Below, one piece after another: positions 18,151 through 20,509 of a DNA stretch of 64,000 bases (position 1 is the stretch's first letter; every line of letters starts with the position of its first letter). The stretch lies in the NCBI RefSeq assembly GCF_003790525.1, contig NZ_CP033635.1. The stretch is one strand, 5' to 3'. The notes under the pieces are model-generated. The model saw only the letters and a list, made by a program, of their open reading frames with translations. It was not told the origin of the DNA and made no database searches. A program made the translations under genes and the position numbers. Source of the stretch: Escherichia coli. GTDB lineage: Bacteria > Pseudomonadota > Gammaproteobacteria > Enterobacterales > Enterobacteriaceae.

Positions 18151-19500
18151 TTAGATAGCCCAGCCACCCGCATAGAAGGTCACCAGCGCCACGGCAATAA
18201 CGACCGTACCGATGTTCAACTTGCGCCATTCGCCGGAAACCAGACGACCAATCACCAGAGTCGCGAAGCCGATCATGATGCCTGTTACGATGTTACAGGT
18301 CAGCACGATGAATACCGCCGTAACCAGACCCGCCATCGCATCAACAAAATCAGCAAAGTCGATTTTCGCCACGTTGCTCAGCATCAGCAGGCCAACGTAC
18401 ATCAACGCCGGAGCCGTTGCGTACCCCGGAACGAGGTAAGAGAGCGGAGAGAGGAACAGAATCAGCAGGAACAGCACGCCAACGGTGATAGCCGTCAACC
18501 CGGTTTTACCGCCCGCCGCCGTACCCGCCGCAGACTCGATGTATACCGCTGCCGGAGCTGCACCCACCAGGCCAGAGAAAACGCTGCTCATGGAGTCAGT
18601 GGTCAGTGCTTTCCCGCCGTCGATGATCTGCCCGTCTTTATCCAGCAGGTTCGCCTGACCGGCGACGGCGCGGATAGTTCCGGTGGCATCAAATACTGCC
18701 GTCATCACCAGCGCCAGAACGCTTGGCAGGACTACAGGATTCAGCGCGCCCATAATATCCAGGCTGCCAATCAGTGAATTGCCGTTTTCATCGCTCAATG
18801 AAGGCATAGCGAAAACGCCGGAGAAATGGACGTTAGGATCGAAGATCAAACCGACAATTGAGATACCGATAATGGTCAGCAGAATGCCACCAGGGACTTT
18901 CAGTTTTTCCAGGCCGATGATCACCGCCAGACCTACCAGTGACATCATCACCGGAAAGGTCGTGAAATCACCCAGCGCAACGGGCAGACCATCAAGCGGG
19001 TTTTTAATCACCAGACCGACACCATTCGCAGCAATCAGCAGCAGGAACAGACCGATACCGATCCCCGTGCCGTGCGCCACACCGTGCGGCAAGTTGCGCA
19101 AAATCCAGCTACGGATACCCGTGGCAGAAATGACCGTAAACAGCACACCCATCAGGAACACGGCACCCAGCGCGACAGGTACGCTAATATGTTGCCCCAG
19201 CACCAGACTGAATGCGGTAAACGCCGTCAGGGAGATGGCGCAACCAATCGCCAACGGCAGATTAGCCCACAGACCCATCACGATAGAACCGAGTCCGGCA
19301 ACCAGACAGGTCGCAACGAAAACTGCCGCAGGCGGGAAGCCCGCTTTACCCAACATGCCTGGAACGACGATAACCGAGTAGACCATCGCCAGAAACGTTG
19401 TTAACCCGGCAACCACTTCCTGACGGACAGTGCTTCCACGTTGTGAAATTTTAAACCAGGCGTCGAGTGAACCGCCGGTACGCGCTGATGGCGTAGACAT
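18151..19500 (-). CDS. ghxP: Guanine/hypoxanthine permease (NCS2/AzgA-like)
   Basis: 449 aa polytopic permease matching YjcD/GhxP. Confidence 0.9.
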
Positions 19501-19614
19501 AAGAAAACATCCCCTGAGAGTTTAATTTTCGTCAAGATGCGTGGCGGACAATCCCCTGCCAGCGAAACGTTATCTTCCTGCTCCAGGTTTGCGACAAATT
19601 GGTGCGTCGCAAAA

Positions 19615-19630
19615 AAGCAAACGTTTAGCT
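19615..19630. promoter_or_regulatory. Putative PurR operator upstream of ghxP
   Basis: AAGCAAACGTTTAGCT resembles the PurR box core GCAAACGTTT; additional GCAAACG repeats at about 19658 and 19753. Confidence 0.35.
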
Positions 19631-19911
19631 CCGCGCATACAAAACGGGTGGTAAAAAAGCAAACGATTATCCGGCGATCATAGCGGCTTTTTCAACCGAA
19701 GTTTGCTGCTTTTTTCTCTTTTATTGTCTTGACGATGAAAAACCAGGCAATTGATGCGCAAACGTTATCGTCGATGCGCAAGATTGCAGCGTTATCGAAC
19801 CGTATACCGTTCAGGATTGCGATAAAAAATCGCCTGAGATGACAAAAATATTGCGGCTAAAAAGTGTACTTTTACACTGGCGAAGAAACGCCGGTGACAT
19901 ACAATTAAAGC

Positions 19912-20052
19912 ATCAACACCAACCGGAACCTCCACCACGTGCTCGAATGAGGTGTGTTGACGTCGGGGGAAACCCTCCTGTGTACCAGCGGGATAGAGAG
20001 AAAGACAAAGACCGGAAAACAAACTAAAGCGCCCTTGTGGCGCTTTAGTTTT
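19912..20052 (+). ncRNA. sraL: Small RNA SraL (RyjA), convergent with and overlapping the 3' end of soxR
   Basis: Intergenic ghxP-soxR region ending in hairpin AAAGCGCCCttgtGGCGCTTT plus T-run on the + strand; sequence matches my recollection of SraL; 5' end approximate. Confidence 0.5.
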
Positions 20053-20509
20053 GTTCATCTTCCAGCAAGCGTGCGCCTGTGCCTTCTTCTCCTAAGCGGT
20101 CGCCCGGGTTACGCAATGGGCAATCACTGCGCGAAAGGCAGCCACAACCAATACATCCGTCCAGTTCGTCACGCAGCGCCACTAAGGTATGAATGCGCCG
20201 ATCCAACTCTTCTCGCCATTGGGACGAAAGCTGTTTCCACTCTTTCGCACTTAATGTATGCCCTTCGGGCAACACGCCAAATGCTTCACGAATGGTCGCC
20301 AGCGGAATGCCAATACGCTGAGCAATTTTGATGATTGCGACATATCGCAACACATCACGTTTATATCGCCGCTGATTGCCACTATTACGGATACTGCTAA
20401 TCAACCCTTTGCTTTCATAGAAATGCAGCGCCGATACCGCCACACCGCTGCGTTTTGCCACTTCGCCGGGGGTTAGCAGCGCTTTAATGCGGGGTAATTT
20501 CTTTTCCAT
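20045..20509 (-). CDS. soxR: Redox-sensing MerR-family regulator with [2Fe-2S] cluster
   Basis: 154 aa, HTH N-terminus, C-terminal [12 protein letters not shown] cluster motif. Confidence 0.95.

Follow-up and report, generated by a model that had tools for sequence, protein, structure and literature searches.

Three predicted PurR operators around the promoter of the guanine/hypoxanthine transporter gene ghxP in Escherichia coli

The three GCAAACG(T/A)T motifs found upstream of ghxP in the window (the whole 64-kb stretch of E. coli DNA that was analysed) are very likely PurR operators, grouped around a single ghxP promoter and serving feedback repression of the gene by purines. The preliminary description of this DNA had proposed PurR operators and a multi-site purine repression of ghxP, and the proposal is supported here by matrix scores and conservation as well as by published ChIP-chip, RegPrecise and expression evidence. 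Control of ghxP by PurR at the level of the gene is already published, as are two of the three boxes (S1 and S3); the remaining box (S2) and the three-site layout find no mention in the literature searched. What may be new, then, is S2 as an operator overlapping the promoter, the 99-bp spacing between S3 and S2, and a leader RNA that overlaps S1. In its main part, the finding confirms a textbook-style feedback in which the purine repressor turns off a guanine/hypoxanthine importer, a result that helps annotation without adding new biology. S2, the 99-bp spacing and the shared leader/operator could reveal PurR cooperativity at a distance, together with an RNA layer of purine-uptake control in the relatives of E. 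coli.

The ghxP locus and the sequences compared

The regulated gene, ghxP (yjcD, b4064; 18151..19500, minus strand), is a 449-aa open reading frame for a guanine/hypoxanthine transporter, its name being taken from the annotation of E. coli genomes of 100% identity. Positions 19300-20200 are 100% identical to E. coli SMS-3-5, where the annotated genes beneath the match are ghxP and soxR (20045..20509, minus strand). The ghxP upstream region comprises 19501..19911 and is read along the minus strand. Beyond it lies the gene of the SraL/RyjA sRNA (19912-20052, plus strand; Rfam RF01408, 153 bits), which is divergent from ghxP and convergent with soxR; the SraL/RyjA terminator hairpin (20021-20051) is readable on either strand and sits directly after the soxR stop codon.

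For comparison, we used 81 sequences, consisting of the window and its 80 closest relatives (one genome per species, GhxP identity of at least 90%). They cover more than 20 genera of the Enterobacteriaceae, among them Escherichia, Salmonella, Citrobacter, Enterobacter, Klebsiella, Raoultella, Kosakonia, Kluyvera, Buttiauxella, Cedecea and Atlantibacter. One member (L002, JAEWQV010000038.1) carries the label 'MAG: Bacillota bacterium'. This contig of 2.9 kb has the E. coli GhxP at 100% identity, preceded by DNA like that of K-12, and in all likelihood stems from E. coli and was put in the wrong bin. In the alignment, K-12 equals the window at S1, S2, S3 and a fourth box-like sequence, S4, considered below.

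Sequence and matrix scores of the three boxes

Each of the three predicted operators is an imperfect palindrome of 16 bp with a central CG and a GCAAAC-type half-site. S1 (O1) occupies 19615-19630 (AAGCAAACGTTTAGCT on the plus strand, AGCTAAACGTTTGCTT on the minus strand), S2 (O2) occupies 19657-19672 (AAGCAAACGATTATCC and GGATAATCGTTTGCTT, respectively), and S3 (O3) occupies 19756-19771 (GCGCAAACGTTATCGT and ACGATAACGTTTGCGC, respectively). All three motifs picked out in the preliminary description are present. For S1 its coordinates hold exactly, while S2 and S3 are shifted by 1-3 bases: the S2 motif GCAAACGATTATCC starts at 19659, and the third motif GCGCAAACGTTATCG, which had been placed at about 19753, starts at 19756. 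The orientation also needed correction, in that ghxP is a minus-strand gene and the boxes are therefore read along transcription as AGCTAAACGTTTGCTT, GGATAATCGTTTGCTT and ACGATAACGTTTGCGC.

Two matrices were used for scoring. The first is a log-odds matrix derived from 27 PurR ChIP-chip motifs (Cho et al. 2011), with the yjcD site left out; the second, independent one is the RegPrecise PurR matrix as printed in the supplement of a paper. With the ChIP-derived matrix, S1 (18.9 bits, iid p 2.3e-7) and S3 (18.3 bits, iid p 3.7e-7) rank first and second among 127,970 positions and fall inside the range of the training sites (12.2-24.8 bits). S2 ranks eighth (11.2 bits, iid p 3e-5) and is borderline, lying slightly under the weakest training site (12.2 bits), and the best unrelated site in the window reaches 12.4 bits. 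The RegPrecise matrix gives 17.3 bits for S3, 15.7 for S1 and 14.8 for S2, whereas no unrelated site of the window exceeds 9.1. A PurR matrix scan, which the preliminary description had suggested as a check, thus returns S1 and S3 as the top two sites of the window and, with the RegPrecise matrix, lifts S2 above background as well. Sites as good as S1 or S3 are expected by chance about 2-3 times per E. coli genome. The GCAAACGWT 9-mer occurs in three copies in the 64 kb (both strands), all of them belonging to S1, S2 and S3; the count as such is not above chance (2.2 expected), whereas three random matches inside 150 bp would have P of ~1e-5 under random placement.

Promoter and transcription start

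A scan of the region returns TTGAAA-N18-GATAAT as the sole promoter-like match, assigned to ghxP as a sigma-70 promoter (19666..19695, minus strand) with the -35 hexamer TTGAAA at 19695-19690, a spacer of 18 bp and the -10 hexamer GATAAT at 19671-19666. Both hexamers are invariant and the spacer is variable. SMRT-Cappable-seq, under two conditions, gives a transcription unit of b4064 alone at NC_000913.3 4278317-4279876. Mapped via the K-12 alignment, the start of this unit (K-12 position 4278317, or 4278318 if the table is 0-based) corresponds to 19660..19661 on the minus strand; the published start is located 5-6 nt downstream of GATAAT. Relative to the start, S3 spans -110..-95, S2 spans -11..+5 and overlaps both the -10 hexamer and the transcription start, S1 spans +32..+47, S4 spans +86..+101, and the ghxP ATG is at +162. 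The positions of S2 and S1 suit a block of initiation or elongation; that of S3 alone does not, for S3 is too far upstream for promoter occlusion.

A second promoter near S3 or S1 was considered, and scanning as well as inspection by eye gave no acceptable -35/-10 pair. Also rejected was TTGTCG-N17-GATAAC at S4, an unconserved sequence that does not end in the expected T. An open reading frame of 35 codons starting on the plus strand at 19737 is unconserved and has an early stop in the consensus sequence. Beside the -35 hexamer (19697-19706, minus strand) there is a strongly conserved GCAAAC in E. coli, GCAAAG in other genera, that resembles an isolated PurR half-site, and the A-rich stretch upstream of the -35 is UP-element-like.

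A conserved fold in the ghxP leader

The 5' leader of ghxP (19501..19661, minus strand; 161 nt) has a conserved RNA fold. A long-range helix P1 pairs 19640-19631 with 19544-19536; helix P1b pairs 19630-19621, the 5' half of S1, with 19570-19561 in S4; hairpin P2 pairs 19613-19606 with 19595-19588; P3 lies at about 19556-19544; and the Shine-Dalgarno sequence AGGGGA is at 19515-19510, all on the minus strand. P1 and P2 are predicted by RNAalifold on the aligned leaders, with compensatory changes in both. In a MAFFT alignment of 22 diverse leader sequences, made without reference to structure, standard pairs fill 93-95% of the cells, compared to 29-51% when the partners are slid by 1-3 columns; double changes occur in 9 of the 30 pairs, and the observed values were reached by none of 500 shuffles. 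A covariance model was built on this alignment, P1b not being part of the model, and used to align 79 distinct leader sequences, in which 18 of the 30 pairs show changes on both sides (compensatory). Across 553 kb of sequence, the model finds exactly one match per source, always the ghxP leader, and no second copy.

P1b was left out of the model and is nonetheless paired in 91% across the 79 sequences. The sole variable position of S1 (C/U) tracks its S4 partner, with UA in 34 sequences, CG in 25, UG in 12 and no pair in 5. All of P1, P1b and P2 reappear when single sequences of ten genera are folded by minimum free energy. The E. coli leader taken alone is of unremarkable stability (thermodynamic z-score -0.17), and the case for structure therefore rests on covariation. 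An Rfam 15 scan of 19300-20300 (E<=1) returns only sraL and no family for the leader.

The apical loop of P2 (19596-19605) is C-rich (CCCCU), CCC being present in 62 of the 79 sequences. In most genera, 5-7 nt of the invariant Shine-Dalgarno sequence AGGGGA find their complement in this loop. The E. coli loop, GCACCAAUUU or GCAGCAAAUU, is without the C run, and P3 is degenerate there too. No terminator follows any of the leader hairpins, and the leader offers no clear expression platform. A leader peptide from the ATG in GTATGCGCGG is rejected, since other genera have AAG, CTG or TTG in place of the ATG, with compensation on the opposite strand of the helix. The paralogue ghxQ, too, is discounted as a carrier of this leader motif: it lies inside a xanQ-guaD-ghxQ cluster with a gap of only 35 bp before it and has no leader of its own.

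S4 and a possible double role of S1

The published PurR site prediction at -76 of yjcD is S4 (19561..19576, minus strand; AAGATAACGTTTCGCT), which in the leader forms the 3' strand of P1b. It scores at background with both matrices (ChIP-derived, 8.1 bits, rank 23; RegPrecise, 8.5 bits, rank 12), is without the GCAAAC half and is not PurR-like in most genera. With scores at background and no box-like sequence in most genera, S4 is not retained as a fourth PurR operator. To judge from its scores and its covariation with S1, S4 is probably the RNA pairing partner of S1 rather than a protein-binding site, and its box-like appearance is explained by complementarity to one half of S1, which is itself a palindromic box. 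The published -76 'PurR site' is corrected in this sense.

S1 differs from S4 in that 15 of its 16 positions are nearly fixed, whereas the adjoining P1 and P2 covary freely. Such a pattern would be expected if DNA binding to a specific sequence were required on top of base pairing. S1 is therefore retained here as a PurR operator, and the box seems to be under both constraints. One may argue, alternatively, that S1 (and S4) is conserved mainly as a helix of the leader RNA, with the PurR resemblance secondary and PurR acting via S2 and S3 only. Such an explanation would account for the pairing of the S1 5' half with 19570-19561 in 91% across the 79 sequences, the covariation of the variable S1 base with its partner and the paired state of S1 in the single-sequence folds. 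It is unlikely, given that S1 ranks best or third-best among the PurR matches in 64 kb (p 2.3e-7) and that ghxP is a demonstrated PurR target in ChIP-chip. A helix alone would, moreover, allow compensatory changes throughout, and the near-fixation of S1 points to an added sequence constraint at the level of the DNA.

Taking S1 as operator and helix strand at once, we tentatively suggest that the leader could be an undescribed cis-regulatory RNA of the Enterobacteriaceae. It would consist of a long P1-P1b-P2 rod, backed by covariation, with a side hairpin, a conserved purine-rich internal loop and a C-rich apical loop able to pair with the Shine-Dalgarno sequence, and O1 would be read both as DNA, by PurR, and as RNA, in P1b. 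This possibility is a doubtful one; if true, transcriptional and post-transcriptional purine control would be layered on one sequence. In a stronger version, the leader RNA would sense a purine-related ligand.

Conservation and spacing of the boxes

Upstream of ghxP, S1 is found in 81, S2 in 80 and S3 in 81 of the 81 sequences; L077 is without a recognisable S2. A conservation profile anchored on S3 (80 distinct sequences) shows the boxes and both promoter hexamers near-invariant between variable flanks. The -35/-10 spacer and most of the interval between S3 and the promoter drift, with a mean of 1.0 bit per position compared to 1.9 bits inside S3. In the case of S2, one half is the -10 hexamer and would be conserved in any case. 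Its block GATAATCGTTTGC, invariant in 80 of 81 sequences, includes CGTTTGC outside the hexamer; the invariance thus reaches 7 bases past the -10 and is not accounted for by promoter function alone.

In 80 of the 81 sequences S3 and S2 lie exactly 99 bp apart; Mangrovibacter is the exception, its spacing being 100 bp and its S2 having lost the right half. The S2-S1 distance, by comparison, is 42-46 bp in 60 sequences, and an insertion shifts S1 to 78-156 bp from S2 in another 20; the distance from S1 to the ATG stays at ~128 bp in most of these 20. This combination of a near-fixed distance to the ATG and a variable distance to S2 fits a position-independent role of S1, for example as an elongation block. 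Given that neighbouring non-coding segments change length often, the S3-S2 distance appears constrained, and the frozen spacing could possibly reflect cooperation of PurR dimers or interference with an upstream activator.

The early leader of Klebsiella, Raoultella, Kluyvera, Pseudocitrobacter and their relatives is longer by 45-110 nt, the added stretch lying between S2 and S1 (loci L030, L033, L034, L041, L043, L045, L046, L048, L050, L052, L054, L056-L059, L062, L068, L076 and L079). The extra segments contain lineage-specific inverted repeats that would form hairpins.

Directly upstream of S3 lies a further conserved element, TGTTGC-N4-TTGCGCA-N3 (19772-19795, minus strand). Its TTGCGCA is a direct repeat of the S3 3' end, 20 bp apart, and in the S3-anchored profile of 80 distinct sequences it is near-invariant, with no conservation farther upstream; L032 lacks the element. 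On inspection, neither a further PurR operator nor a CRP, FNR, RutR or CytR site fits it.

The placement of S3 between ghxP and sraL, the label 'ryjA/yjcD' of the peak in the ChIP-chip table, and the conserved element abutting S3 on the sraL side might suggest that S3 controls sraL/ryjA, or else an unknown divergent transcript, and not ghxP. We consider this very unlikely. Between S3 and the sraL 5' end (19912) there are 141-156 bp, too many for occlusion; the scan gives no promoter-like site near S3; and the distance conserved in 80 of 81 sequences is the one to S2 at the ghxP promoter, whereas the sequence toward sraL is unconserved.

Published evidence for PurR control

In the ChIP-chip study of Cho et al. 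2011, PurR gives a peak at ryjA/yjcD (U00096.2 4275855-4276485, log2 2.08) that was seen with adenine only. The motif assigned to it, ACGATAACGTTTGCGC, is S3 as read along the minus strand. The peak is ~630 bp wide and does not resolve single boxes; the occupancy of each of the three sites, and the contribution of each, we infer. In the arrays of the same authors, yjcD is missing from the significantly changed genes. A 2015 regulon-inference paper gives AGCTAAACGTTTGCTT (S1) at -130 among the sites that it has in common with RegPrecise, and adds AAGATAACGTTTCGCT (S4) at -76, which it calls "novel". In Sastry et al. 2019, ghxP is a member of the PurR-1 iModulon and has a PurR motif upstream. 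ghxP is repressed by exogenous adenine, and Kozmin et al. 2013 are a secondary source for PurR-dependent adenine repression of yjcD; a 2021 paper has PurR repressing ghxP in response to hypoxanthine.

These data bear on the identity of the repressor. Another protein of the LacI family (e.g. RbsR, CytR, Cra) could in principle bind the boxes instead of PurR, the AACGTT core being common to LacI-family operators. The left half of S4, AGCGAAACG, resembles the RbsR operator. Binding by such a relative is highly improbable, with S1, S2 and S3 carrying the PurR-type GCAAAC half-site and scoring high with PurR-specific matrices, PurR itself being cross-linked to the ghxP region in vivo, and ghxP co-varying with the pur genes. 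That the motifs are a functionless chance cluster, as their unremarkable count (3 versus 2.2 expected) might suggest, is already ruled out by their conservation in more than 20 genera and the in vivo occupancy of the region by PurR, in line with the clustering (P ~1e-5) and top ranks of the sites.

Discussion

PurR control of ghxP is understood as negative feedback on purine uptake, which would run parallel to the repression of de novo synthesis. Upon build-up of hypoxanthine or guanine, the PurR-corepressor complex would bind and the importer gene ghxP would be shut down. Judging from its position over the -10 hexamer and +1, a PurR dimer bound at O2 should exclude RNA polymerase, in the classical mode of PurR action. 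O1, situated in the transcribed leader, would most likely provide a downstream block or added occupancy, as at purB and purR. O3 is a strong distal site, and its distance of 99 bp from O2 across the family suggests a position-dependent auxiliary role. PurR is known as a dimer without a tetramerisation domain, and at purB and purR, where a promoter has several operators, it acts on polymerase during elongation. With the repressor dimeric and S3 distant, a looping role of S3 would be speculative. On an equally tentative footing, the invariant O3-O2 spacing would mean that PurR dimers cooperate over distance.

Comparison with known systems places the ghxP upstream region between several precedents. 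Like the purine riboswitches (guanine/adenine, xanthine) of other bacteria, the ghxP leader is a structured and conserved leader before a purine permease gene, and it shares with them covarying helices and conserved unpaired purine-rich segments. It differs from the riboswitches in having no Rfam family match and no clear expression platform, and in that the C-rich loop and P3 are degenerate in E. coli. Another parallel is offered by gal (OE/OI) and lac (O1/O2/O3), where, as at ghxP, strong auxiliary operators are located on both sides of the promoter and one inter-operator distance is conserved. In contrast to gal and lac, the S2-S1 distance of ghxP varies over 42-156 bp, and only S3-S2 could be phased. 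Looping requires repressor oligomerisation or HU, neither of which is known for PurR.

Closer analogies exist within the PurR regulon of E. coli itself. The gene purR, with two operators downstream of the promoter, and purB, with an operator inside the coding region, have PurR sites 3' of the start site, like S1 of ghxP; the downstream sites of both have been described as an elongation block. Compared to purR and purB, ghxP additionally has one site over the promoter and another far upstream, and its downstream site belongs to a folded leader RNA. Most PurR targets have been assigned a single operator between -35 and +1, whereas ghxP has three sites from -110 to +47, of which the promoter-overlapping S2 is the weakest. 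In the operators themselves, ghxP matches the regulon: those of purF, purHD, purMN, purT, xanP, purP/yieG and other genes are likewise imperfect 16-bp palindromes, with CG at the centre and GCAAAC as half-site, and ghxP shares with these genes both the repressor/corepressor logic and the class of function, purine synthesis and transport.
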